Of a stretch of DNA of 64,000 bases, positions 7,842 through 42,360 are shown in pieces. Position 1 is the first letter of the stretch; each line of letters starts with the position of its first letter. Origin of the DNA: an uncultured Gammaproteobacteria bacterium (GTDB lineage Bacteria; Patescibacteriota; Patescibacteriia; Magasanikbacterales; UBA922). A model generated the notes under the pieces. That model was not told the DNA's origin. It ran no database searches and was given only the letters and a program-made list of their open reading frames with translations. The translations under genes were made by a program, and so were the position numbers. Where the stretch lies: the NCBI GenBank assembly GCA_964345045.1, contig CAYFPM010000003.1:6038-70037 (forward strand). The letters run 5' to 3'.

Positions 7842-7958
7842 CTCCCCTATTAGGGGAGGCTAGCCCGCCTGCCTTGCTTCCCGATTTATCGGGATGCGGG
7901 CAGGGTGGGGTCAAATCGTCTACCAGCCCCCCTCTGTCTCCCCCTAATAGGGGGAGAA
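7842..7958. repeat. palindrome-bounded intergenic element (CTCCCCTATTAGGGGAG ... GC-rich hairpin ... TCTCCCCCTAATAGGGGGAGA)
   Basis: Two near-perfect palindromes in mutual inverted orientation enclose a structured GC-rich core (cccgat/atcggg and cctgcc/ggcagg pairings). The same boundary sequences recur at 41921 and 42342 around a DUF559 gene. Confidence 0.5.
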
Positions 7959-7979
7959 CTTTATTTCAATTTTTCGAAT

Positions 7980-8912
7980 CTACCCAATCCCCCACAATTC
8001 CTTCATCTGTTTTATCCCTTCTTCCAAATTAATCTTTGGCTCCCAGCCAAGCATTTCTTTGGCTCTGGTGTTGTCTGCTCTGGCATAGCGTGGATCTCCT
8101 GCTCTAGGATCTATGTTTGTAGTTGGTCCACCAATCAACTCAGCCAGTTGATTGACTGAGTATGGACTATTGTTTCCAATATTTATCATTTCCCCTTTGC
8201 CAACTTTGTCACTAGTCATAGCCAAGATATTGGCTTCTACAGCATCGTCTACATGAGTATAGTCACGGAAGTATTCTCCATCTCCACAAATAGTCATAGA
8301 TTCACCATTTTGCAATTGGCGCAAGAACTTGCCAATTACTAGGGCATAAGCTCCTTCCGGATCCATGTGCGGACCATAAATATTAAAATAACAAAGTGAA
8401 ACCGTTTCTAATCCATAAAGACTAGAAAAAAGTCGGCAGTATTCTTGACCAGCCAATTTTTGCAAAGCATAGGGGCTAAGCGGATTCTTCTTCATATTTT
8501 CTTTTAGAGCAATTGGTTCGTCTGATCCATAGACCGAAGAAGAAGTAGCAAATATAACTCTTTTTACTCCAGCATCTTTGGCAGAAAGAAGCACATTAAG
8601 AGTTCCATTCAAGTTGTGATCATTGGTAATATCCGGATGCTCAACAGAATAAGGTACCCGTGGCACAGCCGCTTCGTGAAAAACACCATCAACTCCTATT
8701 ACTGCTTTTTTGACATCTTCCAAATTTCTTATATCTCCTTCTATATATTCCACACCGTCAATTTTTCTTTCTGGAAATTTTTCAAAATCTCCAGCCGAAA
8801 AATTATCAAGCACGCGCACATCATGTCCGTCACGCTTTAATCTTTTTACAATGTTGGTACCGATAAACCCGGCACCGCCTGTTACTAAGTATTTCATATT
8901 TTTTTTAGTCAT
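7980..8912 (-). CDS. NAD-dependent sugar nucleotide epimerase (GalE/WbpP-like)
   Basis: MKYLVTGGAGFIGTNIV Rossmann motif, about 310 aa SDR-type epimerase. Confidence 0.8.
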   Translation of the reverse strand: MTKKNMKYLVTGGAGFIGTNIVKRLKRDGHDVRVLDNFSAGDFEKFPERKIDGVEYIEGDIRNLEDVKKAVIGVDGVFHEAAVPRVPYSVEHPDITNDHNLNGTLNVLLSAKDAGVKRVIFATSSSVYGSDEPIALKENMKKNPLSPYALQKLAGQEYCRLFSSLYGLETVSLCYFNIYGPHMDPEGAYALVIGKFLRQLQNGESMTICGDGEYFRDYTHVDDAVEANILAMTSDKVGKGEMINIGNNSPYSVNQLAELIGGPTTNIDPRAGDPRYARADNTRAKEMLGWEPKINLEEGIKQMKELWGIG

Positions 8913-8986
8913 ACTGAGCGGAGCGCAGCGGAGTCGAAGTATCCCGTTTATAACGAACGAGATCCTTCGCTAGCGCTCAGGATGAC
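8908..8986. repeat. MITE-like hairpin repeat with GTCAT(A/C)CTGAGCG terminal inverted repeats
   Basis: Left arm GTCATACTGAGCGGAGCGCAGCGGAGTCGAAG, right arm CCTTCGCTAGCGCTCAGGATGAC. Member of a family also present at 13035, 14023 and 46265. Confidence 0.5.
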
Positions 8987-9012
8987 TACACTTAAGACAA
9001 TTAATTTTCAAG

Positions 9013-10392
9013 TTATTTTATAAAAGGACTCCCCACCGCAATTATACCAAATCCGGCTTTTTGCAAATCATCGTACTTGTGTTGCAGCATTCTACGGCCA
9101 TCCATTAACAAAGTATTTGGTTTGGCGTGTTCTATAAGCAAATCTCCCAAACTACGAAATTGTGGCCAGTCGGTGGCTATTATTACTACATCGGCTTCGG
9201 CGATAGCTTCTTTTTCAGAGTTAGTATAAACCATTTTTTCTGACTCTGGAAAATTGTATTTGAAAAAATCCATAGCAGCCGGATCATAAGCTTGAATTTT
9301 TTTCACTCCCGAACCAAGCAAAATCTCGGCGATGTTTAAGCTTGGTGAGTTGCGAGTATCATTGGTATCTCGTTTGAAAGCTAGTCCAACCAAGGCTACG
9401 GTTTTGTCGCCCCACTCTATTCCGGCATCACGACCAGCTCTATCCAAAAAATTTTGCAATTGTCTTTTGTTGGCCCCATATGTTTCGTCTACAATCTCGG
9501 AATTTTTGCCAGCGTCACGCAATTGATGAGATAGGGATCTGGCATCTTTTATAAAACAGCTACCTCCGGCATAAAGACTATCATAAAATCCCCAATTACC
9601 AATTCTTTCATCACCAGTAATTATTTTACGAAGCTGTTCAAAATTTACATCGTCAAAAGCTTCGCTAGTGCGACCAATTACATCAAAACAAACGGCTAGT
9701 TTGTTGAAAAGATAAAAATTGGCCAACAGCTTACCGGCAGCAGATTCTTTTGGGTTTACTTCTAGATATTTTACAGTAGCCGAACTATAGAATCTGTCGT
9801 ATACGCCTCGCATTATGGCAAAATCTTTTTCACTCCAAGCTCCTACTACTACTCTGTCGGGACGAATGGAACCTTCTATAGCTTTGCCCTCTACCAAAAA
9901 TTCTGGGTTAGAAACTACACCATAATTTTTTACCCCCGCTTCGTCCATAATTTTGGCAGTTTGATCTACCATATCTATGGGCACGGTGCTTTTGTTTACT
10001 AGTACTACGTATTTTTCTTGGCTCCCATTATTTCTTTCTTTCAAAACTGTGGCCAATTGTTCGGCGGCTTTGTGATAGTATTCCAAATTGCTTTCGCCTG
10101 TCTCTCCAATTTCTGGAGTTGGCAAACACATAAAAATAGCATCAACATTGTCTAAAAAGGCTGTTACTTCCGAATAATCGGTAGTAAAACTAATGCGATC
10201 TTTGTGTCTTTGGAGTAGCTCTGCCAAACCTTCTTCGTAGATTACAGAATCTATTTGGTTTTTATCTCCCGAGCCTAATTTTTTTATTTTGTTTTCGTCT
10301 ATATCAAAAACCAAAGTAGTGTGTCCACTATCTGCAGACACAGCTGCCGAACAAGCGCCTACAAAACCAGATCCAATATATAAAATATTCAT
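9013..10392 (-). CDS. ugd: UDP-glucose 6-dehydrogenase
   Basis: MNILYIGSGFVGACSA N-terminal NAD fold and UDP-glucose/GDP-mannose dehydrogenase family length. The ORF in the track is extended upstream to 10566, but the ATG at 10392 matches the family N-terminus. Confidence 0.8.
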   Translation of the reverse strand: MNILYIGSGFVGACSAAVSADSGHTTLVFDIDENKIKKLGSGDKNQIDSVIYEEGLAELLQRHKDRISFTTDYSEVTAFLDNVDAIFMCLPTPEIGETGESNLEYYHKAAEQLATVLKERNNGSQEKYVVLVNKSTVPIDMVDQTAKIMDEAGVKNYGVVSNPEFLVEGKAIEGSIRPDRVVVGAWSEKDFAIMRGVYDRFYSSATVKYLEVNPKESAAGKLLANFYLFNKLAVCFDVIGRTSEAFDDVNFEQLRKIITGDERIGNWGFYDSLYAGGSCFIKDARSLSHQLRDAGKNSEIVDETYGANKRQLQNFLDRAGRDAGIEWGDKTVALVGLAFKRDTNDTRNSPSLNIAEILLGSGVKKIQAYDPAAMDFFKYNFPESEKMVYTNSEKEAIAEADVVIIATDWPQFRSLGDLLIEHAKPNTLLMDGRRMLQHKYDDLQKAGFGIIAVGSPFIK

Positions 10393-10750
10393 AATATAAA
10401 TGCTTGAAATGCCAAAAAAGCTAGAGAGGCTTTTAAGGCTTTTATGGGGGATACTATAGCAATTTGGATGTTTATTTTCAAGGGTTTTTGATAAATAGTT
10501 CTTGGTTCTTAGTTCAAAGTTATTAGTTAAGAGTACAGCTAAAATAATGCTAATTAGAAATTGCAACGGTCTCTGCCTTCGCTAGATTCACTATTACATA
10601 TTGCCAACTGCCTATACCCCAAAAAAACACGAAGGCCGGGCTGCTTTTTGCAACTCGGCCGGGCAGATACTGCCTTTCTCAGCATCTGCGCGTTTACCCA
10701 CTCACCTATGTCTACATCCGTTTTCACTATTTGCCCCTCCCAGAGCATGT

Positions 10751-11419
10751 TTACTCGTTGTCGTCTCCACCCAAAACCTCTACAAGTGGCACATCGCGAA
10801 CAGTGTCGGCCACTTGTACATCTAGTATCTCCGGGACTCCCGGGTCGGTCTGCACATCTGCCTCAAATGGCGGATGCAGCTCCTCGAGCCGACGACCTGG
10901 GACTGTATCCTTGTTCGCAGTCATTCTCCTCTGGGTTCTTCGGCTGGCACTGGCTAGCGGCCCTGGGTGCCGCTGGTCTGGCTCGGTGGTGCGCCTGGCT
11001 TGCCTAATTAGGAATTGAGCCAATTCTTCGTCTATGTCTGGGTCAAACCCTAGGCCCTCTCTATGGGGGGCTGGCGGGGCGACCAAACCAGGTGGTGCTT
11101 TGGCTTCTTCCATGTCACTTAGGATCTTGCCTAGCTCTGGAGCCGGGACAATATCTACAGGAGTGACCTCGCGCAAGTAGGGCGGCAAGCTGCTAGACTC
11201 TCTGGGCTGAGCCGGCATAGCCAAACCTTTGGCTAACTCTTGGGGCGAACTTGCATTCGCCCTGCCGACCATAGCCAGCGAGGTAAGCGCTGCCAAGAGA
11301 GCAACAACAGCTGTACCAATCAGGCTTTGTCGGCGAGATAGTACGCCGAGGAACCCTAGGGAAAGTATGGTGGCCAAAGCCACCAGTGTGGGTAACACTA
11401 GGAAACGCAATCTTTTCAA
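10751..11419 (-). CDS. GC-rich membrane-anchored proline-rich protein (unknown function)
   Basis: TTG start preceded by AAGGGAAG. Two N-terminal TM helices, then a Pro/acidic low-complexity tail. GC-rich codon usage unlike flanks. Confidence 0.45.
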   Translation of the reverse strand: MKRLRFLVLPTLVALATILSLGFLGVLSRRQSLIGTAVVALLAALTSLAMVGRANASSPQELAKGLAMPAQPRESSSLPPYLREVTPVDIVPAPELGKILSDMEEAKAPPGLVAPPAPHREGLGFDPDIDEELAQFLIRQARRTTEPDQRHPGPLASASRRTQRRMTANKDTVPGRRLEELHPPFEADVQTDPGVPEILDVQVADTVRDVPLVEVLGGDDNE

Positions 11420-11652
11420 AACGCTTCCCTTCCTTTCTCCACCATTTCGGTGGCCTAGGTATTCTTTGGCAAAAATAGCTAGGAGACAGAAATGGTGTGA
11501 ATTGTTACCTATTTTCAGTATGGCTTTATTTTTTCTTTTTTGTCAAGAGCTTTGGGCCAAAATATTGACTTTTGGCTAATTTTAGTGTAGGTTTCAAATA
11601 ATCTAGTTTGAGTAAAAAAGCTCAAACAGAAAGCTCTTTTGAGAGGTAAAAA

Positions 11653-12885
11653 GTGAAACTTACCATCACCAACCCCGACCACGCCTCCTACATCACCAGC
11701 CTCGACAACCAAAGATTCGCCGATGTACTCGTGGGAGAAGCCCCGAACATTCACTTCAACGATGGCAGGGCGGACAACCCGGTCATGCAGCTGTTGTGGA
11801 CAGATCCCCAGACTATCGTAGATATCTGCACCCTGGCCCTGCCCAAGGCAGAGCAAATGGAGACGTCCACCCACGTGAAACAAGAACGCCAGGCCGCCAT
11901 CTATGTATTGATGGTCGATGCATATCGGCGACTGTGGCAAGCAGAAACCTCTACTTCTAGGAAGATGTCTCTAGATGCGCAAGTCGCAGATATCTTCGAA
12001 AAAGCTCAGAGCCTGGTCGAGAAACTCGAGGAACACGATGTTGACAGAGCCAATAGGCTCACCGGATCTATGAATCACAACCGTATCCAGATGCTGGTTT
12101 CTACCGGCAAATACCTAGATGCTACCAAGCTCCACGACGAAAACGCTCGCCTCGCAAGAGAAGTGAATGATTTCCCCACCTTCGACCGAGAAGAACTTCG
12201 TGCCGCCGTACACGCCGCCAATCACCAACTGTGTTTTGGTGATCGCAGCGATATGGTCGGAGACCCAGACAGGTTGATAGATTGGGACTTGGCCGTACGC
12301 CAGGCTCAAGAGACAGCTCTGCATGTTGCAAGTCAATATGCAGACCAAGAAGAACACATCGCCATGGCCATCGAGGCACTTCTCTACGCTATTCGAATGG
12401 ACTGGTTGTCTAGGAGTGATCGCGACAACACGGCCTATATCCAACAAATCTCCGCCATGATGAGCGGGAACGAAGGCTTGCAAAAAGCCTTTGGCTGGAT
12501 GCACACGATCCTGGGGGCAGCCCAACTCATTCATTCCTTCAAGAATTGGGGGGAGGAGGTAATCGTTGAAGCCGAAAAAGCCATCGCCAGAATGAAGGAA
12601 ATCGGGGACAACGAAGATATCCCCATGCCCTACCGCACCGAAGCCATGCTCTGTATGGCGCAGCTGTCCAGCGCTCTAGGCCATTTCATCAGCCAAAACA
12701 GGTTCGGTTCCCATGGAGGCGCAACCATCCCCCAGTACCCGGACAGAATGCGGGCAGCCTACGAAGAAGCTGCCTCTATCCTACAGAAGCTCCAGAACCT
12801 GCAAGGTAGCCTGGCCTGGAAGGACGTAGCCACTATCATGGACAAGAGGCACCTCCCCAACGTACTCAAGTATTGCGCGGGATAA
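11653..12885 (+). CDS. GC-rich hypothetical alpha-helical protein (410 aa, no recognisable domain)
   Basis: GTG start preceded by GAGAGG. Long uninterrupted ORF in a GC-rich island, divergent from 10751..11419 across an AT-rich 230-bp spacer. Confidence 0.5.
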   Translation: MKLTITNPDHASYITSLDNQRFADVLVGEAPNIHFNDGRADNPVMQLLWTDPQTIVDICTLALPKAEQMETSTHVKQERQAAIYVLMVDAYRRLWQAETSTSRKMSLDAQVADIFEKAQSLVEKLEEHDVDRANRLTGSMNHNRIQMLVSTGKYLDATKLHDENARLAREVNDFPTFDREELRAAVHAANHQLCFGDRSDMVGDPDRLIDWDLAVRQAQETALHVASQYADQEEHIAMAIEALLYAIRMDWLSRSDRDNTAYIQQISAMMSGNEGLQKAFGWMHTILGAAQLIHSFKNWGEEVIVEAEKAIARMKEIGDNEDIPMPYRTEAMLCMAQLSSALGHFISQNRFGSHGGATIPQYPDRMRAAYEEAASILQKLQNLQGSLAWKDVATIMDKRHLPNVLKYCAG

Positions 12886-12993
12886 CATCAAAAAAGCAAC
12901 CTACCTCTCAACCGTTCTAAAGTTTAATTAGATTTAAATTTTTAGACCGGCCCCCTTCCCTTTGTTTATAAAAAATTTGTAACCAAAGGAAAA

Positions 12994-13026
12994 CAAAAAA
13001 CTACTGATATGTTCAGTAGTTTTTTG
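12994..13026. terminator. A-tract/hairpin/T-tract terminator (AAAAAACTACTGAtatgtTCAGTAGTTTTTTG)
   Basis: 8-bp stem, 5-nt loop, T6 run, about 110 nt after the stop of 11653..12885. Confidence 0.5.
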
Positions 13027-13034
13027 TTAGTAAA

Positions 13035-13207
13035 GTCATCCTGAGCGGAGTGAGTCTGAAAGACGAACACAGTCGATCCGATGCTTGCGATACGGATTCT
13101 CCGACGCAAGGTACGGAGTCCGTATTGAAACATCGGACCGTACTGTAAACGTCGGAAAGGATCCCGGTTGAAGTCCAAAGAGATTCTTCGCTAACGCTCA
13201 GAATGAC
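13035..13207. repeat. about 173-bp MITE-like element with GTCATCCTGAGCG / CGCTCAGAATGAC termini
   Basis: Terminal inverted repeats plus a highly self-complementary core (ccgatg...catcgg, atacgga...tccgtat). The core is the reverse complement of the core at 14023..14194. Confidence 0.55.
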
Positions 13208-13245
13208 TATAACTAATCAATCAGATTCTCACTACAACCTACCCC

Positions 13246-14016
13246 CTACTCACTAACAACATTCTTCGGATCTTCTCCCAAAGATTTGGTATAACCTTCG
13301 TTTCTGGTGTGGTGAGCATTGATCCCCTGCCATTCCGGATGAGCCAAACAAATACTAAGAACTTCGTTAAGTCCATAAAAACCACCTCGGGCTTCACAAC
13401 TTTCAATCAATAATCGCAAAAATTCAAAATCTTCCGGAGTATCCAAAGTCCAACGATGATTAGAAAAATCTTCTGTATTGGCTATATTAAAAAGTTTAAA
13501 CTTGTCCGGATGCTTCCAGATATAAGGCATTACGTGTTCACGCTCGGAATTAAGCTTGGCTTCTTTCCAAGCTTTTTCGAGGGCTGCAAAAGAAACCACC
13601 TCTGTATCAAGTCCATCTGGAAAAGTTGGTGGCTGAGTGTTTGATACATAATCATACTCCCCATCCAAAAAAGCTTGAATAACTCTATCTGTAACTTGCG
13701 GATCAAGCACCGGGCAATCTCCTGTAACACGCACAATTACATCGGCCTTGGACTGAATAGCAGCATGATAATATCTATCTAGCACATCTACCTCACTACC
13801 TCTATAATGTGGAATTCCTTTTTCTACTGCCCAATCGGCCAAAACATCGTCGGCATGGCTGGTAGTAGTAGCCAACCAAACATCATTTGCCAATCGAGAC
13901 ATTCTAGCTCTTTCTATCACGCGCTCTACTATGGGTTTGCCGGCTATGTCCATCATCATCTTACCTGGCAATCTGGTAGAGCCCATCCTGGCTTGAATTA
14001 TAATTACAACTTTCAT
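13246..14016 (-). CDS. CMP-nonulosonate cytidylyltransferase (NeuA/PseF/LegF, CTP_transf_3 family)
   Basis: MKVVIIIQARMGSTRLPGKMM N-terminal acylneuraminate cytidylyltransferase signature. Confidence 0.75.
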   Translation of the reverse strand: MKVVIIIQARMGSTRLPGKMMMDIAGKPIVERVIERARMSRLANDVWLATTTSHADDVLADWAVEKGIPHYRGSEVDVLDRYYHAAIQSKADVIVRVTGDCPVLDPQVTDRVIQAFLDGEYDYVSNTQPPTFPDGLDTEVVSFAALEKAWKEAKLNSEREHVMPYIWKHPDKFKLFNIANTEDFSNHRWTLDTPEDFEFLRLLIESCEARGGFYGLNEVLSICLAHPEWQGINAHHTRNEGYTKSLGEDPKNVVSE

Positions 14017-14022
14017 AAAAAA

Positions 14023-14194
14023 TTAATAAACAGTCATCCTGAGTCGCAGGTGAAGGATCCCAGTGGAAGTCCAAAGAGACCCTTTCCGACGTTTACAGTA
14101 CGGTCCGATGTTTCAATACGGACTCCGTACCTTGCGTCGGAGAATCCGTATTGCAAGCATCGGATCGACTTCGCTGTGCTTCGCTCAGGATGAC
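14023..14194. repeat. about 172-bp MITE-like element, inverted copy of 13035..13207
   Basis: GTCATCCTGAGTCGCAG ... CTTCGCTCAGGATGAC termini. The core ccgacgtttacagtacggtccgatgtttcaatacggactccgtaccttgcgtcggagaatccgtat matches the reverse complement of the 13035 copy almost exactly. Confidence 0.55.
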
Positions 14195-14195
14195 T

Positions 14196-15509
14196 CTAGG
14201 TTAGACGTTTAAACCCACTATGAGCCACAGGGCCTTCCAGCATTTCTTCTACTTTATTATTTTCAATCGCATCTTTCAAGAGGGCAAATACTTTGTCGAC
14301 TGTATCTAAAAATTTCTTTACGTGTTCTTCTTTGTGAGCATAACTAACATATACCGAGGCCGAAGCTAGTATGCCGCGTTTCAACATTTCTTGGGTATAA
14401 AGAGTTCTTATCTCTTGTCTGTTTTCATAATCAAAAAGAAACGTTACCAAAGCCGGTGGCCCCATAGTAGTAATTTTTAGACCATGTTTTTCGGCAAGTT
14501 TGTCCCAACCTTCCCAAATCATATTACCAATTTTTTCAATATGTTCTGGCACATTTTCTTTTTCTAATTTTTTTATAGTGGCAAGGGCCGCTACTGGGCC
14601 AATACGTTCGGTCCAATAAGTACTGCTAATAAAAGTATTTTGTGAAGCATCCATCACCTCGCTATTACCAATTACAGCCGACATAGGGAAACCATTGCTC
14701 ATACCTTTGGCAAAAACAGCTATGTCTGGTTCGACTCCATAAACTATATGCATTCCTCCTACATTTTTGCGCCAAGCAGAAGTTACTTCGTCAAAAATCA
14801 AAACAGCTCCAATTTTGTCTGCAATCTGTCGCACCTTTTGTAAGAAATCATTTTCTGGTTCATTGTGACGCACTGGCTCCATTACAATCACCCCAATATC
14901 ATTATTTTCTTTTACAATTTCTTCTAATTGTTCGATCTTATTATATTCAAAAGGTACTGCCGAACCATGTAATCCACGTACCACGCCTTTTGGTTCGAGC
15001 CCCGGGATAAGATGTCCGTCCAGGTTACTGTCGGAGGCTAGATTACTAGCCAAGTACCAATCATGCCAACCATGATAACCACAAAAAGCCACAGTACCTT
15101 TGCCACTTTTGGCTCGACCAATACGCACGGCAATAGACAAAGCTTCACCACCAGTTCTGGCATAGCGCACCATACTAGCCCAGGGGTGCAGTTCAATTAG
15201 CTTTTCGGCTAGGTCTACTTCTTCCGGGCAGTTAAGAGTTGTCATACTTCCCCGCTCTATCGCATCTACCACAGCCGCATTTACATCTGGATCGGCATAG
15301 CCCAGCACACAAGACCCAATCCCCATGTAAGACATGTCCATATAAGTATTACCATCCATATCTGTTACTTCACAACCTTTGGCATCGGTGTAGTAAGCTG
15401 GCCACTGGTCTGGCAAAAACATTTCTGCTCGTTTGGACAAAAGTTGTGATCCTCCCGGCAAAATCTTTTTGGCTTCTTGCCAACGTTTTAGGGTTTTTTC
15501 TCTACTCAT
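14196..15509 (-). CDS. class III PLP aminotransferase (glutamate-1-semialdehyde aminomutase-like)
   Basis: GSA-AT-like length and motifs (YTDAKGCEVTDMDGNTYMD; FDEVTSAWR). Confidence 0.8.
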   Translation of the reverse strand: MSREKTLKRWQEAKKILPGGSQLLSKRAEMFLPDQWPAYYTDAKGCEVTDMDGNTYMDMSYMGIGSCVLGYADPDVNAAVVDAIERGSMTTLNCPEEVDLAEKLIELHPWASMVRYARTGGEALSIAVRIGRAKSGKGTVAFCGYHGWHDWYLASNLASDSNLDGHLIPGLEPKGVVRGLHGSAVPFEYNKIEQLEEIVKENNDIGVIVMEPVRHNEPENDFLQKVRQIADKIGAVLIFDEVTSAWRKNVGGMHIVYGVEPDIAVFAKGMSNGFPMSAVIGNSEVMDASQNTFISSTYWTERIGPVAALATIKKLEKENVPEHIEKIGNMIWEGWDKLAEKHGLKITTMGPPALVTFLFDYENRQEIRTLYTQEMLKRGILASASVYVSYAHKEEHVKKFLDTVDKVFALLKDAIENNKVEEMLEGPVAHSGFKRLT

Positions 15510-15516
15510 AAAAAAA

Positions 15517-16506
15517 TTATAAATTTACAAATTTATTACTCTCACTAGATTCTTTGGCAGCACAAATAAGTTTTAAAACTTCTGCCCCTTTTCTTACTGG
15601 AGTTTGTGTTTCTTTTCTATTTTCCACACACTGCAAAAATTCTTTGGTTTGAGATATATACATATCATTCAAATCATAATTTTCCGGCAATGCAAAAATT
15701 TTTTCGTCTTCATCTTTGATTTTCAAAACAATACTCTTTTTGTTGGTATCCCAAATCATAGTGCCATTTTCGCCAAAAAATTCAAAATTACGTTGGTAAA
15801 ATCTTTGCAAATAATCCAAATGAATTTCTCCAATTGCTCCATTTTCAAATTTTAATAAAACCTCGGCCACGTCTTCGGTATCTACTGTTACTTGTCCAAC
15901 TCTATCGGCCATACAAGCCACTTGATTAACTTTTCCCAAAAACCAAGTTAGATAATCAAATTCGTGTGAATCAAGCAAAACTCCTCCCCCTAATTTTTTG
16001 TTGGCACTATAACCTTGTTTGTGATCTTCCCATGGATGCCAATCTGGTAAGTACTGCCCAAACTGACAACGCGCCGACAAAATTTTTCCAAGTACATTGC
16101 TATCCAAAACCTCTTTCATTTTTTTAAAAAGTGGATAGTACTTCCAGTTGCTGCCCACCATGCTGATTACTTTTTTACTCTCCACCAATTCAATTAGTTT
16201 ATCAACATTGTCCAAATTGTGAGACAATGGTTTTTCTACAAAAACATCAGAATCATTTTCTACACAAAAAATTGCTTGCTCTGTATGAAATCGAGAGGGA
16301 GAACAAACAAAAGCAATGTCATAGTTATTACTTTTGTAAGCATCTTCCAAAGATGACGCAGTTTTTACAGAAAATTCTTTTTCTATATCTCCTCTTCTGT
16401 CTGGATTGGTCTCTACAACTGTAAGGTTCTTTTCTCCCAAACTCAAAAGATTGCGCAAGTGTCTTTTGCCAATAGAACCTCCACCAATTATTAAAATTTT
16501 TTTCAT
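15517..16506 (-). CDS. Gfo/Idh/MocA family NAD(P) oxidoreductase
   Basis: MKKILIIGGGSIGKRHLRNL Rossmann N-terminus, 329 aa. Confidence 0.8.
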   Translation of the reverse strand: MKKILIIGGGSIGKRHLRNLLSLGEKNLTVVETNPDRRGDIEKEFSVKTASSLEDAYKSNNYDIAFVCSPSRFHTEQAIFCVENDSDVFVEKPLSHNLDNVDKLIELVESKKVISMVGSNWKYYPLFKKMKEVLDSNVLGKILSARCQFGQYLPDWHPWEDHKQGYSANKKLGGGVLLDSHEFDYLTWFLGKVNQVACMADRVGQVTVDTEDVAEVLLKFENGAIGEIHLDYLQRFYQRNFEFFGENGTMIWDTNKKSIVLKIKDEDEKIFALPENYDLNDMYISQTKEFLQCVENRKETQTPVRKGAEVLKLICAAKESSESNKFVNL

Positions 16507-16599
16507 AGTGTGTTAAAAGGCTAGAAAGGCTGAAGAAGCTTTAGAGGCTAGACAAAGGTTTTCAAAGGTTTTCAAACCTCTCCAGCCTTTCTAGCTTCT

Positions 16600-17028
16600 T
16601 TAGCTTTTAAAATATTCTTCGTATTCTTCTTTACCATAAGTATCTGGCTTTTCTGGATCAAAAACAGTTGAACGATACTCTACAAAGCTTACATCTGTCA
16701 AAGCTTTCATTTCGTGCCAAATACCTGGTTCAATTGTTAGCATATCCCCTTCTTCCAATCGGACTGTGATCTCTTCTCCTGTTTTACCGTTTTTAGCATA
16801 AAGTTCCGTCTTACCGGAAATCAAAAAGAAAAGTTCTGGATTTTTGGAAGGGTCATCTCCTTTGTGAAAATGACCTGCAAAAGAAACCCCGGCTTTTCTA
16901 GTATAGGCAGAGACTTGTAGACCAGACAAACCCTGAAAAACTTGATAGGTGTTGCCCCGCGGATCGCCTGGTTTTACGGGTTCTATTTTTTTTATTTCTA
17001 CACCTTTCATATTAGTTTTCTTTTTCAA
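16600..17028 (-). CDS. cupin-fold protein (WxcM/FdtA-like sugar ketoisomerase candidate)
   Basis: 142 aa with a cupin His cluster (FAGHFHKGDD ... WHEM), adjacent to a formyltransferase as in formamido-sugar pathways. Confidence 0.45.
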   Translation of the reverse strand: MKKKTNMKGVEIKKIEPVKPGDPRGNTYQVFQGLSGLQVSAYTRKAGVSFAGHFHKGDDPSKNPELFFLISGKTELYAKNGKTGEEITVRLEEGDMLTIEPGIWHEMKALTDVSFVEYRSTVFDPEKPDTYGKEEYEEYFKS

Positions 17029-17659
17029 TTTTTAAAATATACTTCTTACCATTTAGCTCAAAAAAGGCTGGATATTTTTCGTTATCTACCACCCGCAAAA
17101 GATTAAACTGTTCGGCAATTGTTTTGTTTGGATCAAGTTCACTGTCTTTTGCGCTTCTTTTTTTGTAAAAACTTTCTTCTCCAGATTGTTCTTGCCCCTC
17201 TACATCTGGATAAGCTTGCACAAACTGCACAATCAATTCATTAATTTTTTCGCCCTGCACTTGGTGCAACTCCTCCAGCAATTCATGTCCTTTAAACTGC
17301 ATTTTATTTTGCATAAAAATTTGTCCGGCATCTACAGCGTCTTCGGCTTCAAAAAGTGTATTTACCACTTCGTTTTTTCCTTCTAGGATTGTCCAAGTTA
17401 ATGGTGACCAACCTTTGCCAGCTGGCAAGTTGCTAGAGTGAACTACCAAACTAAGTTTGTTTCTATCTCTTACATCTTTTTTTATTAATTTTTCACAACT
17501 AAGAAAAAAAGCCAAATCACCTGTAGTAACTTCGTCAACAGTATGAACCAACAAAACCTCGTTTCCTAAATCTTGCAAATCTTTTTGCAATTTTTGAGCG
17601 TGCTTATAAAACCAACTCTTTGGATTGTCCATTAAAAGTGTTATTTTCATAAAATTCAC
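17012..17659 (-). CDS. formyltransferase-domain protein (sugar N-formyltransferase candidate)
   Basis: HSSNLPAGKGWSPLTWTILEG resembles the Met-tRNA formyltransferase / ArnA-type catalytic region. Confidence 0.6.
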   Translation of the reverse strand: MNFMKITLLMDNPKSWFYKHAQKLQKDLQDLGNEVLLVHTVDEVTTGDLAFFLSCEKLIKKDVRDRNKLSLVVHSSNLPAGKGWSPLTWTILEGKNEVVNTLFEAEDAVDAGQIFMQNKMQFKGHELLEELHQVQGEKINELIVQFVQAYPDVEGQEQSGEESFYKKRSAKDSELDPNKTIAEQFNLLRVVDNEKYPAFFELNGKKYILKIEKEN

Positions 17660-17760
17660 TAGATCATTAAATCATGAAAGCTTAAAAACAAATAATAAAC
17701 TTTGTTTTCTTACTTTATTGTCACCTTCTGGGTGATCAGCCGAAGGCTGGCTTTTTTGTT

Positions 17761-18531
17761 TTATTGTTTTATTGTTTTAAAATACTCTATATTCTTAATA
17801 TCATTTTCCAGTCCTTTGCCAGATTTTGGAGTTTCAAAAGCCAAATAAACCACTTTGTCTTTTGCATATTCTTCTATAGTCTCTCGTATCCATTTTACAT
17901 CAAATTCTGCTTCCCACAAATCTAGGTGCTGGTCAATAGGACTACGCAAATCACAACCGGAGATATGCATATATTCTGGTTCTATCTCCCCCAAAATCTC
18001 TAACAAAAATTCTTTATACGGTTTATCGTGATAAACTGCCGCTTTTATACTTTTGCAGATGTCCAAACAAATCTTTTTTTGTTTACTAATTTCTATAATA
18101 TCGTCTATATTAGTTCCAAATTTTCTATTTTCTCCACCAAGCGGACTAATCACCGGCATGGTTTCTATAATTATTCTTTCATCATTTAGTTTTTTTAAAT
18201 TCTCCCAAAAGCTTCCTGGATTATGATTATTTGCCGGATGAACCACGATTCTAGGAGCTTCAAAAAAATCAGTCAATTCCCTAGTCATTTGCCAAGCAGG
18301 TTCTTGTTCTTTGGTTAGAAAAAAATCATGAAAACCAGCCTTGTCCAAATGACCAATATGAGTTGCTAAAACCGGTATTTGTTTCAATTTTTCCAATGCC
18401 AAATAATCATGAGCTACTTCGCTATTACTATAAATTTCTACAAAATCAAATTCTTCTCGCTTGTGACGCTCTACGGCTTCTTCAAACCAATCTGTATTAT
18501 TCGACCAAATTTTTAAACCATATTTAATCAT
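17761..18531 (-). CDS. hypothetical protein, possibly xylose-isomerase-like TIM barrel
   Basis: 256 aa, no strong motif recognised; weak resemblance to sugar phosphate isomerase/epimerase proteins. Confidence 0.3.
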   Translation of the reverse strand: MIKYGLKIWSNNTDWFEEAVERHKREEFDFVEIYSNSEVAHDYLALEKLKQIPVLATHIGHLDKAGFHDFFLTKEQEPAWQMTRELTDFFEAPRIVVHPANNHNPGSFWENLKKLNDERIIIETMPVISPLGGENRKFGTNIDDIIEISKQKKICLDICKSIKAAVYHDKPYKEFLLEILGEIEPEYMHISGCDLRSPIDQHLDLWEAEFDVKWIRETIEEYAKDKVVYLAFETPKSGKGLENDIKNIEYFKTIKQ

Positions 18532-18532
18532 A

Positions 18533-19606: not shown

Positions 19607-19759
19607 AAGTAGGCTATTGATTTTTTAAAATAAAGTATTTAGTACAGTTAACTTTTTACAAACTACTTAGTTAGAGCTTGAAATAATAATTTCAATTTAC
19701 TTACTTTGTATGATTGAACTTCCGTGTTTTAATGTTTAAATGTTTTCATGATTTAAGGA

Positions 19760-20515: not shown

Positions 20516-20521
20516 ACCTAC

Positions 20522-23784: not shown

Positions 23785-23787
23785 AAT

Positions 23788-38380: not shown

Positions 38381-38629
38381 CTAAAACTGTCGATAATACT
38401 CACCAATTTTTTTCTTTTTCAAATCAAAATCTTGCCAGTAGGTATCTGATTCTTTATCTAGTTTGGTTTTTAAAAACTTTTTTTTGAATAGTTTGGCCAG
38501 TACGGTTGTAATTCCAACTCCCAAAAAATAAACAACAGACAACAGTACAGAATTAACAAAAACTGCGATTGACTTGGCAAATAATTCCATGCCCTTTCTA
38601 AATTCTTTTAATATCTGCTTAAAGTTCAT
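38381..38629 (-). CDS. small membrane protein co-transcribed with carbamoyltransferase (SxtJ-like association)
   Basis: 82 aa with one TM; the call rests on position only. Confidence 0.3.
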   Translation of the reverse strand: MNFKQILKEFRKGMELFAKSIAVFVNSVLLSVVYFLGVGITTVLAKLFKKKFLKTKLDKESDTYWQDFDLKKKKIGEYYRQF

Positions 38630-38632
38630 AAC

Positions 38633-38827
38633 TTACAAAACTTCTTCTTTTAACCAATACCCCACAGCCGCAATTATGGCTGTAATAATAGCCAAGTCAT
38701 AAATATCCCAAGTTTGTGGCAGCTTGTCCAAAAAAGTAAGGATAAAATAAAGTACTGTAGTAAAAATCAAATATCCAAACAAAAAACCAATTCCATTTGT
38801 AAAACTTAATCTTGATTTTGTATTCAT
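38633..38827 (-). CDS. small two-TM membrane protein
   Basis: 64 aa hydrophobic; tightly packed between a GT2 and the carbamoyltransferase operon. Confidence 0.3.
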   Translation of the reverse strand: MNTKSRLSFTNGIGFLFGYLIFTTVLYFILTFLDKLPQTWDIYDLAIITAIIAAVGYWLKEEVL

Positions 38828-38828
38828 A

Positions 38829-39677
38829 CTAACTTTTTTTGAAAAGTGAAGCTAAAAATCCCAAACTCAAAAAAGCCAGACCAACAAAAAAGAAAGTCAA
38901 AGCTACTACAATGGTCCCAAGAGAATGAACCATAACTCCTAGAACAAAAAAAGCCAAAGCTGCTAAAAATGGGAAAAAAGACAAAAGTAAAAATAGCTTA
39001 ATCGGGTTGTACCTAGCAATAATCTCTACCATGATTTGCATGGTACGCAAAGAATCTTGAAAATATCTTACCTTAGATTTTCCTTTTCTAACTTCGTAAT
39101 TAATTGGTACATATTTTACAAAGTAGTGTTTCAAAAAGAAAATCAGAGTTGAAGAAGTTGTAAAAGAAAATTTATTGGAAAGTTCTGGTAAGTGCGGTTT
39201 GATTACACTTTTTCTAATTACTCGAAATCCAGAATTAATATCTGGAATTCTATTACCTACCACAAACTCACTCATTATTTTGAAAAAAAATCTAGCGATT
39301 CTTTTGGTTAGGTTTGGGATATAAGCTCTACCTTGTCTCGCACCTACTACCATATCTATCCCTTTGTCAAATTCACTAACTAACTTTGGGATATCTGCTA
39401 TTGGGTAAGTTGCATCAGCATCTGTAATTACCACACATTCGTTTTGGGCAGCCTCTATTCCTCGTTTCAAAGAAAAACCATATCCCATGTTGACTGGGTT
39501 ATTTATAACTTTGGCTTGATAATCTTTGGCTATTTCTTCTGTTTTGTCTAGAGAAGCATCGTTAACTACAATCACTTCAAAATCTCTATCTATCAATACA
39601 GACTTTAATTTTTCCAAAACTTCAGCAATACCTTTTTCTTCGTTGTAGGCCGGGATCACAACCGAAACATTAGTCAT
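38829..39677 (-). CDS. family-2 glycosyltransferase with C-terminal TM segments (Dpm1/GtrB-like)
   Basis: VSVVIPAYNEEKGIAEV ... VVNDASLD ... ITDADATY. Confidence 0.8.
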   Translation of the reverse strand: MTNVSVVIPAYNEEKGIAEVLEKLKSVLIDRDFEVIVVNDASLDKTEEIAKDYQAKVINNPVNMGYGFSLKRGIEAAQNECVVITDADATYPIADIPKLVSEFDKGIDMVVGARQGRAYIPNLTKRIARFFFKIMSEFVVGNRIPDINSGFRVIRKSVIKPHLPELSNKFSFTTSSTLIFFLKHYFVKYVPINYEVRKGKSKVRYFQDSLRTMQIMVEIIARYNPIKLFLLLSFFPFLAALAFFVLGVMVHSLGTIVVALTFFFVGLAFLSLGFLASLFKKS

Positions 39678-39680
39678 AAT

Positions 39681-41096
39681 TTAATTCTTAATATTTCTCT
39701 TATATAAGCGAAGTTTACAGGTTTCTATAAAAAATTCAAGGCCAAACCCCAAGAGTAAAAATAAGGCTGGAAAAGATGGCATACGGTAACGTACATGGCT
39801 GGCCGGCCCCAAGGTAAGGAGGATAAAATACAAAGAAAGTGCTACTAATAAAACTAACTTGTAACCATACTTTTGCCAATTGTTTTTGTTTGCAAAACTA
39901 AAGAGTATGAGTAGATAAATAAGTGACCAAAGAGCCAAACTAAAAAATAAAATAGCTTGAAAGATATCAAATTTCTTAAAAACATTTATCAAGCCAAGAG
40001 GCCCTTTGGTTAGCAGTGTTTCTGTATAACTCACCCGCGCTATTTTTCTTTCTACTCCCATTACATCTTCCAGTATATATTCATACCCTGTTCCTAGCAT
40101 AGCTGGCACAGCCGAAACTGTATAAAATTTGGCAACAGACAAAGGATCTTTTTTTATAATTTCTTTGGTTTCTTCTACTAGTTCATCGTAGTATTTAAAA
40201 TTATTTATAACATCTTCGTATCTGTAATCTGGAGTTCGTTCTACAAATCTTTGCCAATGCAGTTTGGCAGCATCTATGTAACCCAAATTTTCTTCTTTCA
40301 TTACAACTATTGGCGCTACCCTGGCAAAAAGCATAAACGAATCAATGTTTGTAATTTTGCTTCTACCAAAAGTTTGTTCTTGTCGCAAAAGCCATGGAGA
40401 CAAAACTAATACAAAAACCAAAAGCAGTACAAATGTATGAAAAACAAATTTTTGCCAATCTCTAACTTGAAATAACAAATATCTGATTGCCAAAAGTATA
40501 ATTATAAATATTGGCAAATACAAAGCTACAGGTCTTGTAAGTACCAACAAACCAAGCAATACTCCGGAAATTATTATGTCTTTGCAATTTTTTGTTTGTG
40601 AATAGTAACGACCAAAAAAATAAATAAATAAAATTAGTAAAAAATTAAAGAATGTCTCGGTAGTAGCCAAAACAGCAGTCATAAGCATGTATGGCTCGAA
40701 AATATAAATAAGACCTACAAGCTTACCAACTCGCTCTGAAAAAAACATTTTGCCAATTTGATAAAGCAAAACAGCAGAAAAGCTAGCCAAGATATTTTGT
40801 AAAATTATAATTGCCCAAATATCTGAACCGGGTATTAATTTGGCCAATACCAAAAATATAGGATAAAGCGGTGTCCGATAAGCACTAGGCATTCCATCTC
40901 TGCTAAAGCCTTCGCCAATAAGCAAACTATCTGCCAAGTTCAAATAACTATGGGCATCCTCGTTTTCAAACCACAAAATTGATTCACCAAATTTTTGGTA
41001 TAGAAAAATGCTTACTAAAAGATGAATTAAAAAAGAAGCTACAAAAATTTTGGTAGCAAATTGGTGTTGTTTTAAAAAATCTTTAATCTTATTCAT
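39681..41096 (-). CDS. GT-C fold membrane glycosyltransferase (PMT_2/ArnT-like), paralogue of the N-domain of 60042..62681
   Basis: FENEDAHSYLNLADSLLIGEGF ... RTPLYPIFL closely parallels GNSDTHGYLSLAENIAKGNGF ... RTPLYPLYL in the other protein. Confidence 0.55.
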   Translation of the reverse strand: MNKIKDFLKQHQFATKIFVASFLIHLLVSIFLYQKFGESILWFENEDAHSYLNLADSLLIGEGFSRDGMPSAYRTPLYPIFLVLAKLIPGSDIWAIIILQNILASFSAVLLYQIGKMFFSERVGKLVGLIYIFEPYMLMTAVLATTETFFNFLLILFIYFFGRYYSQTKNCKDIIISGVLLGLLVLTRPVALYLPIFIIILLAIRYLLFQVRDWQKFVFHTFVLLLVFVLVLSPWLLRQEQTFGRSKITNIDSFMLFARVAPIVVMKEENLGYIDAAKLHWQRFVERTPDYRYEDVINNFKYYDELVEETKEIIKKDPLSVAKFYTVSAVPAMLGTGYEYILEDVMGVERKIARVSYTETLLTKGPLGLINVFKKFDIFQAILFFSLALWSLIYLLILFSFANKNNWQKYGYKLVLLVALSLYFILLTLGPASHVRYRMPSFPALFLLLGFGLEFFIETCKLRLYKRNIKN

Positions 41097-41097
41097 T

Positions 41098-41907
41098 TTA
41101 TTTTTTCAAAACGGCAGTAGAACCATACCCAAAATTACGCATAATTGACCATGCTCGCATTTTGTCTAAAAATTTTACAAACGGCAAAAGAGAAACAAAA
41201 AATGGTAGACAAATAGTACTGGCTTCGAAATGTTCTAACTTAAAACCAACTTTTCTAAAATGTCTTTTCATTACCCAAGGATAACGGAATATATGGATAA
41301 GATCTTTGTTCCCTACATAACCTTCGTTGGCTCCTTCGCCAAATATGCCAAACAAAATTTTGAAAAATCCCCAAGGAATAGCGAGCAATGATCTTTTGGA
41401 TTTTTCCCAAAAACTACCATGACCAACTTGGATCATGCTACACAGATTAAGCGCAGAAGGAAGTGCAATTACTGCTTTTTTCTTGGTAACTCTATAAACT
41501 TCTCTCAAACCTTTGTGAAAATCTGGCAGATGCTCTAGCACATGAGAACTAACAACGGCATCAAAACTATTGTCGGGAAAAGCCAAATTTTCGGCATCGC
41601 CTACCATAAAATTGGTTTTGTCTTCTACTCCCCAATCTTTGGCCAACTTCTTGGCAGCCTCTATATTTGGAGCAGATATATCTACCCCGGTTACTTCTAT
41701 CCCCTCTTTGGCCAAAAGGCAAGACAAAACTCCATCACCACAACCCGCATCTAGCACCATTTCACCTTTGTAAATTTGTCTAATTACAGATTGGTATTGC
41801 GATATATGCGCATAACGACGCAACGCATTTTTCGAAGCAAACCGCTTGTCATGAATATGGTCAGCGTATTTGGTATAAATTTCTTTGTTGTCTTTTGTCT
41901 GAGGCAT
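41098..41907 (-). CDS. class I SAM-dependent methyltransferase with C-terminal hydrophobic tail
   Basis: VLDAGCGDGVLSCLLAKEGIEVTGVDIS motif I. The track ORF starts at a TTG two codons upstream of the ATG. Confidence 0.75.
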   Translation of the reverse strand: MPQTKDNKEIYTKYADHIHDKRFASKNALRRYAHISQYQSVIRQIYKGEMVLDAGCGDGVLSCLLAKEGIEVTGVDISAPNIEAAKKLAKDWGVEDKTNFMVGDAENLAFPDNSFDAVVSSHVLEHLPDFHKGLREVYRVTKKKAVIALPSALNLCSMIQVGHGSFWEKSKRSLLAIPWGFFKILFGIFGEGANEGYVGNKDLIHIFRYPWVMKRHFRKVGFKLEHFEASTICLPFFVSLLPFVKFLDKMRAWSIMRNFGYGSTAVLKK

Positions 41908-41920
41908 AAGCAAGTTGTTC

Positions 41921-41937
41921 CTCCCCTATTAGGGGAG
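41921..41937. repeat. CTCCCCTATTAGGGGAG palindrome (left boundary of DUF559 cassette)
   Basis: Identical to the palindrome at 7842..7859. Confidence 0.5.
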
Positions 41938-41951
41938 GTTAGGAGGGGTCC

Positions 41952-42338
41952 TTATATAGATAAATTTTTTATATAAAAGATTATATCATTAATAACATTA
42001 TCAAGCTCGTATTTAATTTGTTCATTCCTGTATCTCAAAACAAAATATCCGTTTTGTTGTAAATATTTTTGTCTAATTATATCTTTCTTTTTATTTTCTT
42101 TTTCTGCATGTATGTACCCATCTATTTCTATTATCAATTTCAACTCATGAGAATAAAAATCTACAATATAATAATCAATGTTAAACTGTCTTCTAAATTT
42201 AACCCCCAGTTGTTTTGCTTTTAATTTATACCACAATATTTTTTCCGCTTCAGTTTGACAAGTTCTTAGACACCTTCTTCTTTTTTTAAAAGATGCTTTA
42301 TTCTGGTAACGACCGATTGATTTCATATTGACCCCCAC
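41952..42338 (-). CDS. DUF559 (Vsr/Mrr-like restriction-endonuclease-fold) protein
   Basis: TEAEKILWYKLK ... FRRQFNIDYYIVDFY ... LIIEIDG ... RQKYLQQNGYFVLRY matches the DUF559 layout. Confidence 0.6.
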   Translation of the reverse strand: MGVNMKSIGRYQNKASFKKRRRCLRTCQTEAEKILWYKLKAKQLGVKFRRQFNIDYYIVDFYSHELKLIIEIDGYIHAEKENKKKDIIRQKYLQQNGYFVLRYRNEQIKYELDNVINDIIFYIKNLSI

Positions 42339-42341
42339 TTA

Positions 42342-42360
42342 CTCCCCCTGATAGGGGGAG
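42342..42360. repeat. CTCCCCCTGATAGGGGGAG palindrome (right boundary of DUF559 cassette)
   Basis: Near-identical to TCTCCCCCTAATAGGGGGAGA at 7938..7958, including the preceding CCCCCxCTxxxCT context. Confidence 0.5.

Follow-up and report, generated by a model that had tools for sequence, protein, structure and literature searches.

DUF559 nuclease genes are associated with inverted pairs of BoxC/PIT-class triplex-motif repeats in Patescibacteria and other bacteria

We describe a small palindromic element in a 64,000 nucleotide (nt) stretch of contig CAYFPM010000003.1 (GenBank assembly GCA_964345045.1, positions 6,038 to 70,037), from a metagenome-assembled genome placed by GTDB in the Magasanikbacterales of the Patescibacteriota. 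This whole stretch is called the window throughout. It carries two copies of the element, one gene-bearing (41920-42360) and one gene-less (7841-7956). The gene encodes a nuclease of the DUF559 family, and the repeats themselves are new members, in Patescibacteria, of a known class, that of the BoxC, PIT or 'TM' G/C-rich class II intrastrand triplex motifs. The association of triplex motifs with DUF559 genes is general. We give roughly even odds (about 0.5) to the reading that these are selfish elements, either homing-like or similar to REPIN repeats and their REP-associated tyrosine transposase (RAYT) genes, in which DUF559 is the cognate nuclease of BoxC/PIT/TM-class doublets.

BoxC, PIT and triplex-motif repeats have been known in Escherichia coli since the 1990s, and we know of neither a function nor a means of spread for them. 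DUF559 is a very large family for which a structure has been solved but, to our knowledge, no role is known. The reproducible link between the two merges these questions into one, namely whether a DUF559 protein, for example YcjD of E. coli, binds or cuts these repeats. If it does, there would be a second system of repeat and cognate enzyme beside REP/RAYT, on a different nuclease fold; the genome instability seen locally at these loci would then be accounted for, as would the peptides inserted in frame into Bacteroidales enzymes. If it does not, what is left is a clean account of new Patescibacteria members of a repeat class already known.

Two copies of a three-block element in the window

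The palindrome CTCCCCTATTAGGGGAG is present in exact copies at 7842-7858 and 41921-41937, with 0.04 matches expected by chance in the 64 kb window, and CTCCCCCT(A/G)ATAGGGGGAG is present at 7938-7956 and 42342-42360, with 0.02 expected. An earlier note on this DNA, made from its letters alone, had reported these four palindromes, and we find them exactly where it placed them. A scan of the window for any palindrome of the form C4+...G4+ yields four in all, which make up the two pairs. The palindrome is only part of a unit of ~31 nt, composed of a pyrimidine block, a loop, a purine block, the trinucleotide TTA and a mirror purine block; on one strand of each window palindrome, the mirror of the hairpin's purine arm stands after TTA or TAA. 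The 'CCCCCxCT flanks' and 'aGGgGGGGTC inner sequence' to which the earlier note drew attention are real and correspond to this third, mirror block of each unit. Within each pair the units are inverted with their mirror blocks facing inward, and at either site, read on the plus strand, the C4-type unit stands to the left of the C5-type unit. The features of the two copies, with units designated A1 and A2 in the gene-less copy and B1 and B2 in the gene-bearing copy, are as follows.

7841..7912, plus strand: unit A1, from sequence reading and a single-stranded DNA (ssDNA) fold
7863..7901, plus strand: nested secondary hairpin of 39 nt, GCCCGC...TCCCGA TTTA TCGGGA...GCGGGC, between the purine and mirror blocks of A1
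7913..7925, no strand: 13 nt doublet centre AAATCGTCTACCA, its position matching the 12-53 nt centres of Patescibacteria gene-less doublets
7926..7956, minus strand: unit A2, placed at 7927-7957 by the triplex-motif finder
41920..41950, plus strand: unit B1, on the 3′ side of the gene, CCTCCCC TATTA GGGGAGG TTA GGAGGGG TC
41952..42326, minus strand: DUF559 nuclease gene (Vsr-fold, PD-(D/E)XK; PF04480), 124 amino acids (aa) from ATG
42330..42360, minus strand: unit B2, on the 5′ side of the gene, CTCCCCC TATCA GGGGGAG TAA GTGGGGG TC, then AAT and ATG

Unit B1 has a perfect hairpin, a perfect mirror block and, as its second loop, the TTA of the 'type A' motifs introduced below. Unit A2 reads CTCCCCC TATTA GGGGGAG ACA GAGGGGG GC on the minus strand, and its third block is a perfect mirror. 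All three blocks are likewise present in A1, which runs from CCTCCCC (7841-7847) through TATTA and GGGGAGG (7853-7859) to GGTGGGG and TC (7904-7912), with the 39 nt hairpin inserted in its second loop; its ssDNA fold contains an 8 bp hairpin plus the nested hairpin (z = -5.5). A strict three-block finder (7 nt blocks, perfect hairpin, at most one mismatch in the mirror block) recovers B1, B2 and A2, or three of the four units, and finds no motif in 30 shuffles of the window. The hairpins of A1 and B1 are identical at 19 of 19 positions, and those of A2 and B2 at 18 of 19, with a difference in one loop base. As unit types and order are the same and the hairpins nearly identical, the two sites therefore carry one element with and without a gene. 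This is the relation of filled to empty forms that had been proposed for them, and it recurs in a second member of the Magasanikbacteria (locus L012, below; other loci are likewise cited by L numbers). It was also claimed that the first palindrome pair encloses only a G/C-rich hairpin, and there is indeed no gene: the 79 nt enclosed (7859-7937) are without an open reading frame (ORF), and the hairpin is the nested one of 39 nt.

The simplest account of such a layout is coincidence, in which ordinary hairpins such as terminators happen to flank a gene. Weak terminator-like matches on the plus strand at 7937-7957 and 42342-42360 would agree with this, but they lie on the strand opposite to the genes. 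On the gene strand, a terminator scan listed nothing terminator-like at the two window sites, and intrinsic terminators were rejected on this ground as the identity of the palindromes. The chance expectations given above, the lack of triplex motifs in the shuffled windows and the recurrence of the association in 50 of 80 independent loci also speak against coincidence, which we regard as excluded. A comparison with Rfam gave no match at gathering score in the window, and only noise at E-values up to 10 around the doublets.

Membership in the BoxC/PIT triplex-motif class

Read from their sequence, the units share the grammar of BoxC, PIT and 'TM' motifs, and they have the three blocks that define the G/C-rich class II triplex motifs. 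In E. coli the class is represented by TMECO, with the pattern CCCTCNCCC N3-6 GGGNGAGGG N3 GGGNGAGGG, in which a second loop of TTA marks 'type A' motifs (Holder et al., 2015, PMC4666352). E. coli MG1655 has 23 TMECO copies, including five inverted A+B pairs; 262 proteobacterial genomes contain TMECO, and cyanobacteria are among the other bacteria with G/C-rich motifs of different sequence (PMC4666352; earlier work on the class, by Bachellier et al. and Hoyne/Maher, is cited there). In vitro the motif folds into stable triplexes; it can also block polymerases, and promoter or terminator activity of PIT/BoxC elements is reported to be absent (PMC4666352). In a comparison of 56 E. coli strains, TMECO loci were far more rearranged than control intergenic regions; no mobility genes were found near them, and TMECO was always intergenic (PMC4666352).

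The window units resemble this class in their three-block order, inverted pairs of two types and wide phylogenetic spread, in being without an associated transposase, phage or plasmid and, going by related species, probably in multi-copy dispersal. By inspection, however, their blocks are 7 nt long (CCTCCCC or CTCCCCC) and differ in sequence from the 9 nt CCCTCNCCC, and a strict TMECO regular expression, applied to the examined loci outside the window, matches solely the E. coli locus (L212, 4206-4240). The units are therefore members of the broader class and not TMECO itself. They differ further in host, which is Patescibacteria here and Proteobacteria for the known repeats, and in setting: TMECO is reported as always intergenic, with no mobility function found, whereas here a nuclease gene stands inside the doublet and relatives of the units stand inside coding genes. 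The words 'endonuclease' and 'DUF559' are both absent from the text of PMC4666352. A literature search that covered only a minority of the papers in subscription journals brought up no paper that connects DUF559 or ycjD to palindromes, BoxC or triplex motifs, none that contains the unit sequences, and no later work on bacterial intrastrand triplexes that makes the link.

The DUF559 protein and its gene

The gene had been described as encoding 128 aa, which is correct from a GTG start; public assemblies record the 124 aa form from the ATG at 42326. Its assignment to DUF559 was borne out by the profile check, with a match to PF04480 at E = 1.8e-31 (108.7 bits, with the curated cut-off at 20.6; the match spans positions 4-106 of the 109 in the profile). 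Residues E67, D69, H73, D82 and R85 are invariant in 27 relatives; the catalytic motif is intact, and the gene apparently so. The closest solved sequence is the DUF559 protein of PDB 3HRL (E = 1.6e-13), and a phmmer comparison with 3R3P, the catalytic domain of the homing endonuclease I-Bth0305I, is weak (E = 0.17). An AlphaFold (AF2) model of the nuclease, with a predicted local distance difference test score (pLDDT) of 85.9, was used for a Foldseek search, in which 3HRL (E = 1.4e-7), 3R3P (E = 6e-5; TM-score of 0.70, normalised to the target) and, weakly, Vsr (0.09) were matched. These matches agree with published work in which Vsr, DUF559 and I-Bth0305I are grouped together (PMC3424549). 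A defence system was considered and rejected, PADLOC giving only weak domain-level matches to nuclease modules (DpdF, methyl-directed REase, HEase).

Vsr is a repair nickase (PMC3424549), and its fold lends some appeal to a caretaker role. DUF559 would then be a structure-specific repair nuclease, kept by the host, that processes the hairpins or triplexes of the repeats and limits damage, and that is co-selected and linked with the repeats but does not spread them. The stable triplexes formed in vitro and the ability of the motif to block polymerases (PMC4666352) would fit such an enzyme, and the single copy and stable position of ycjD in the E. coli strains that carry it also fit. Left unexplained are the position of the gene exactly inside the doublet with conserved junctions, the insertion of a cassette between rnpA and yidD, and the opposite orientations of two DUF559 lineages in the doublet, all described below. 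We consider a caretaker role improbable.

The cassette lies within a long minus-strand operon for polysaccharide synthesis, between a class I methyltransferase gene (41098-41913) and a GT4 glycosyltransferase gene (42363-43523), as had been stated. The G-run in the third block of B2 is 5 nt upstream of the start codon, which is the Shine-Dalgarno (SD) position. In the predicted RNA fold this block pairs with GGACCCCUCC past the stop codon, closing the whole ORF, a prediction by which translation of a nuclease that may be toxic would be held back. Other lineages, too, have arms that are SD-like (GGGTGAGGT) and anti-SD-like (ACCTCACCC).

These three observations favour a cis-regulatory explanation, by which the units control or insulate DUF559 expression through sequestration of the ribosome binding site or hairpins at the mRNA end, and gene-less doublets are scars of gene deletion. 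Such scars should hardly be about ten times commoner than filled doublets, or occur in many copies per genome; nor would they be expected to share a conserved 32 nt gene-less centre with a AAAACGTTTT core in at least five Magasanikbacteria species, or to stand in frame inside unrelated enzyme genes of Bacteroidales. Further points against regulation are the absence of promoter or terminator activity in PIT/BoxC elements (PMC4666352) and the lack of a terminator-like site on the gene strand at both window sites. Taken together, these points make the explanation rather unlikely.

Association of DUF559 genes with the repeats in other genomes

The link was examined from the side of the gene in a metagenomic sample of 80 loci, selected for DUF559 at 40-62% identity from among the matches listed. 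In these loci, the density of perfect G/C-rich hairpins is 9-fold higher close to the DUF559 gene (within 150 nt), and that of three-block motifs is 3.44 per kb at this distance versus 0.025 per kb beyond 300 nt, an enrichment of ~139-fold that is symmetric on the two sides of the gene. A full three-block motif is present within 150 nt of the gene in 50 of the 80 loci. Upstream and downstream hairpins match each other better within a locus than between loci, and none of 5000 permutations reached the observed value. The block sequences vary by lineage (CTCCCCC, CCCCTCC, CCCTCTCC, CCCTCCCC and others), with the grammar kept.

Homologues of the window protein at 60-63% identity (L003, L065, L128 and L030) have the same units at the same distances to the start and stop codons, with conserved junctions that read GGGGGTC-N3-ATG at one end and stop-N5-10-GACCCC at the other; the arrangement of units in L007 is more distant. 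The units are 85-94% identical, versus 65-70% for the cassette interiors; for B1 and its counterpart in L003 the figures are 94% and 68%. The C-terminal tails TPPNLP, KDPSHLP and PPLRGE of many homologues are the translated 3′ unit.

Spacing points in the same direction. Over all loci examined, consecutive motifs at most 150 nt apart (132 cases) form doublets, and of the 42 cases with a spacing of 301-700 nt, at least 24 have a DUF559 gene between the motifs, which is seen at no other spacing. In Patescibacteria and in DUF559-selected loci, DUF559 is the sole gene found between pairs at the latter spacing. In the window the gene stands between the mirror blocks; elsewhere it may stand between the hairpins instead, and the two positions are about equally common.

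In the Magasanikbacteria locus L012, a distance of 1.2 kb separates a gene-less doublet from a filled one. The sequence of the former is GGGGGTC-catctttgag-caaaacg-ttttgttttgctaaa-GACC, and in the latter the outer parts of this 32 nt centre are kept on either side of the gene and its ribosome binding site. The gene therefore occupies the exact centre of the doublet. Relative to the C5/C4 polarity, the DUF559 lineage of this locus (P0013/15/17 type) has the orientation opposite to that of the window lineage. Two opposite orientations argue for independent entries of DUF559 into doublets as against a single ancestral arrangement.

Distribution, pairing and evidence for mobility

Other genomes were scanned with the pattern CCCCTNNNAGGGGRRGTWAGNRGGGGTC, one genome per species, which gave at least 118 loci. 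The matches listed come from Patescibacteria, Prevotellaceae, other Bacteroidales, Gammaproteobacteria, Poribacteria, Caldilineaceae, Planctomycetota, one cyanobacterium and one Hyphomonadaceae genome. Among them, the mirror relation between the purine and third blocks holds at the degenerate positions in 121 of 123 distinct anchors, which belong to only three sequence types and thus are not 121 independent events. A DUF559 ORF is present in only about 6 of the 118 repeat-selected loci. The unit pattern has no match in 2.9 million viral contigs, and a phage origin was rejected on this ground.

Of the 31 Patescibacteria anchors among the matches listed, 23 are gene-less inward doublets and two hold a DUF559 gene; among the six others, a decayed partner is visible by eye in most. 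The earlier note had held that its proposal would fail if the palindromes were generic REP-like elements occurring singly. The class is indeed REP-like (BoxC/PIT, PMC4666352), but with 25 of 31 anchors paired and most others beside decayed partners, single occurrence does not describe Patescibacteria. The gene-less inverted doublets there are ~95 bp long, and a minority of doublets carry a central DUF559 gene. Their centre is usually of 32 nt, with the conserved sequence catctttgaNcaaaacgttttNtNttNct around the core mentioned above; one genome has its own 53 nt version of the centre, present at five scattered sites. Doublets are scattered in general; their flanks are unrelated, and some variants are specific to a genome. 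In related species the number of copies per genome runs from several to many, and the window has four units, as two inverted pairs, in 64 kb. In Bacteroidales the units are mostly in the reverse pairing, with hairpins adjacent and mirror blocks outside, or solo.

Members of the repeat class are dispersed and inserted into conserved operons and genes. In L003 the cassette lies between rnpA and yidD, and in four relatives (RnpA 65-68% identical) the gap between these genes is of 38-80 nt and without a unit. The whole L003 cassette, ends included, is therefore an insertion, whose boundaries and target motif are blurred by the distance of the nearest genomes, with RnpA at only 65-68% identity. This insertion supports the earlier description of the element as a selfish cassette type; on the other hand, the palindromes are not private ends of DUF559 cassettes, as most copies are gene-less.

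Palindromic repeats that insert in frame into genes are familiar from Rickettsia as Rickettsia palindromic elements (RPEs), and Bacteroidales relatives of the units do likewise inside conserved enzymes, adding peptides. The two differ in sequence, hosts and three-block structure, and the window copies are intergenic. Among the matches listed, 48 of 72 Bacteroidales anchors lie in frame inside long ORFs and add ~25-30 residues of the form (Q/K/R)TPSNSPLKGE...SPLRGGLEGS, or SPFKGELEGV from the other strand. The ORFs that hold them encode real enzymes, interrupted inside a domain or between two domains, and include asd (aspartate-semialdehyde dehydrogenase), a DEAD-box helicase, GH32, GH43 and a class V aminotransferase. 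The doublet unit in this group (rumen Prevotellaceae and others), CTCCCCCTTTAAGGGGGAGTTAGAGGGGGTC, is nearly identical to that of the window and is found at L014, L034, L038, L106, L111 and ~40 more loci; one example is L111:2904-2931, inside an ORF at 2655-3749. These in-frame copies contrast with the report of 'always intergenic' repeats in E. coli (PMC4666352).

The E. coli gene ycjD

E. coli K-12 has a DUF559 gene, ycjD, between sapF and fabI (L212, NC_000913.3 1351000-1351830; locus 4150-4830, minus strand). A decayed motif overlies its stop codon. Downstream lie a fragment of a DUF559 3′ end, present as a duplicate, and, 168 nt past the stop codon, an exact TMECO type A (BoxC) motif. Upstream of ycjD is a 16 bp hairpin with arms CACCTCAT...ATGAGGTG, which includes the SD-like GAGGTGA. 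E. coli genomes with the gene have one copy of it, at a stable position, and the TMECO motif has a median of about 19-20 places per genome. In lineages such as B2, a 7 kb efflux island, right beside the motif, stands in place of ycjD; its genes encode a TetR-family regulator, an RND pump, an outer-membrane subunit and an MFS transporter.

In a spread sample of E. coli, all 37 genomes with ycjD have 15-33 motif places, and among 22 genomes without it, 12 have 2-5 places and ten have 10-23. These counts are compatible with slow decay of the repeats after gene loss; the comparison is confounded by phylogroup and thus is not counted as support.

The E. coli data bear on one more explanation, in which DUF559 is a passenger. 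Fragile triplex repeats would be spread by host replication and repair or by another factor, and small, horizontally transferred DUF559 genes would land in them and stay, with a nuclease role that is unrelated, for example in mismatch repair or defence. That TMECO loci are highly rearranged with no mobility genes nearby in 56 E. coli strains (PMC4666352), that an efflux island replaces ycjD beside the motif, and that motifs persist in strains lacking ycjD all fit this explanation. A passenger would not be expected to be the sole gene between pairs 301-700 nt apart, in Patescibacteria and DUF559-selected loci, or to keep the GGGGGTC-N3-ATG junction to the nucleotide across proteins that are ~60% identical. 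The extension of the ORF into the 3′ unit in many lineages (tails TPPNLP and KDPSHLP) and the ~139-fold enrichment, symmetric about the gene, also count against it. We judge this explanation unlikely on balance, while giving it some weight.

Comparison with known systems

The closest architectural parallel is provided by REP and REPIN elements with their RAYT genes, which Bertels and Rainey reportedly described in 2011. The shared traits are short dispersed palindromes, an inverted doublet with a short spacer (in REPINs, the replicative form), a single gene bracketed by inverted repeats, gene-less doublets that are far commoner, and no known target-site duplication. We find inverted doublets and a bracketed gene here, but no HUH/Y1 (IS200/IS605-like) transposase; the bracketed gene instead encodes a Vsr-fold PD-(D/E)XK nuclease, and the repeat has a third, mirror block. 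As the bracketed gene is DUF559, with a Vsr fold, the element is therefore an architectural analogue of REP/RAYT and not a member.

A second parallel is I-Bth0305I, the prototype of the EDxHD homing endonucleases, a homodimer with a footprint of ~60 bp that cuts the centre of a 14 bp pseudopalindrome beside its own insertion site (Taylor et al., 2011, PMC3239194). The window nuclease shares with it the Vsr-like fold and the acidic and histidine core, E-x-D...H...D, and the central cut is mirrored by the position of the window-type gene at the centre of a pseudo-palindromic doublet. I-Bth0305I is encoded in a group I intron in phage recA, whereas the gene here is free-standing, outside any intron or intein, and Rfam gives no intron match. 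The target here would moreover be a repeated non-coding element, of which empty copies persist in the same genome.

Insertion sequences (IS) and the miniature inverted-repeat transposable elements (MITEs) derived from them offer a third comparison. The likeness lies in terminal inverted repeats of ~31 nt and in gene-bearing and short gene-less forms that share their ends. There is, however, no DDE or other transposase, and two DUF559 orientations are not expected from simple internal deletion. A classical IS/MITE was accordingly rejected, the inverted ends being present without a target-site duplication or a transposase domain. Integron attC sites were rejected as well: units stand on both sides of the gene, GTTAGAG and GTTAGGA misfit the last position of GTTRRRY, and there is no integrase among the neighbouring ORFs scanned.

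A proposed mechanism

We infer DUF559 binding, cleavage and every step of propagation from the association and the architecture. In the reading that we favour, the copy at 41920-42360 would be the 'autonomous', gene-bearing form and that at 7841-7956 the gene-less form. DUF559 would bind the pseudo-palindromic doublet, probably as a dimer like I-Bth0305I, and would nick or cut in or beside it. Host repair or recombination might then copy the gene-bearing version into gene-less doublets (homing), propagate doublets to new sites, or both. The third block of the 5′ unit may serve as the ribosome binding site too, and its pairing with the 3′ unit could keep nuclease expression low. The ~10:1 excess of gene-less copies and the empty doublet beside a filled one sit more easily with a RAYT-like process than with efficient homing. 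Homing, for its part, agrees with the exactly central gene, with its two orientations and with the relationship to I-Bth0305I.

Several points weigh against a cognate nuclease. We know of no DUF559 protein with a biochemical activity on these repeats. Gene-less copies outnumber gene-bearing ones by about ten to one, and about 112 of the 118 repeat loci among the matches listed have no DUF559 gene within a segment of up to 8 kb. The empty doublet of L012, 1.2 kb from the filled one, is awkward for an efficient homing enzyme. In ~30 doublets and in the cassettes we saw no target-site duplication. Since the gene lies between mirror blocks or between hairpins depending on lineage, a single fixed mechanism is not obvious. 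Ten of the 22 E. coli genomes lacking ycjD keep 10-23 motif places, so the repeats persist without the gene. Finally, the unit count for the source genome covers the 64 kb window alone.

A broader version of the proposal would make DUF559 proteins the missing cognate enzymes of BoxC/PIT/TM repeats at large, and the whole a new selfish class spanning many phyla. The Vsr-fold nuclease would recognise the three-block structure and drive its copying, in-frame insertion into essential genes included, and the gene-bearing copy, with its gene at the doublet centre, would act as the master. We advance this version tentatively, and with less than even confidence.

Further observations on the repeats and the window

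Hairpins of the type GCCTGCC...GGCAGGC occupy the same second-loop position as the nested hairpin of A1 in L185 and L028, and one stands upstream of a DUF559 gene in L142. The nested hairpin of the window itself contains a further TCCCGA/TCGGGA hairpin, and a separate insertion of ~30 nt, CCGCCAAAGGATGGACCAGTCCTCTGGCTGG, recurs in several Magasanikbacteria units. Such second-order insertions (L185, L142, L028, L012, L119 and L064) look like tiny elements nested within the repeats. In L064 (doublet centre at ~500-545, minus strand) the core is duplicated in tandem, with agcaaaacgtttta present twice, a footprint such as could result from a staggered cut at the AAAACGTTTT core followed by fill-in. 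The 13 nt centre of the gene-less window copy was compared with AAATCAATCGGTCGTTACCA, as a possible remnant of DUF559 5′ coding sequence; the likeness needs two gaps and is too weak to use.

Two other loci have unusual surroundings. In Patescibacteria locus L007 (1201-3580), a tyrosine recombinase gene, a 249 aa ORF of no known identity, a DUF559 cassette and an extra gene-less doublet stand together upstream of tuf-rpsJ, a cluster that may be a hot spot or a larger mobile region. In L110 (480-900), from an otherwise A/T-rich Magasanikbacteria contig, G/C-rich DNA in which long ORFs overlap on several frames adjoins a triplex-motif pair between whose members no DUF559 was detected.

Directly to the left of the gene-less doublet in the window, between convergent genes, is a separate hairpin, AAAAAACTGAGTTAGTACTCAGTTTTTTTG (7800-7829), rich in A to its left and in T to its right. 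Its appearance is that of a bidirectional terminator, judged by eye, though the terminator scan of the region did not list it; the doublet adjoins this hairpin and does not replace it. The G+C content of the window is 47-53% at 6001-8000, 10001-14000 and 50001-54000, which is odd for a genome of ~33-36%. The ORFs in these stretches include one with a MopE-type metal-binding motif (6493-7650), one of 410 aa (11653-12885) with no Pfam match, and one of 1337 aa with an M23 peptidase domain (50271-54284, minus strand).

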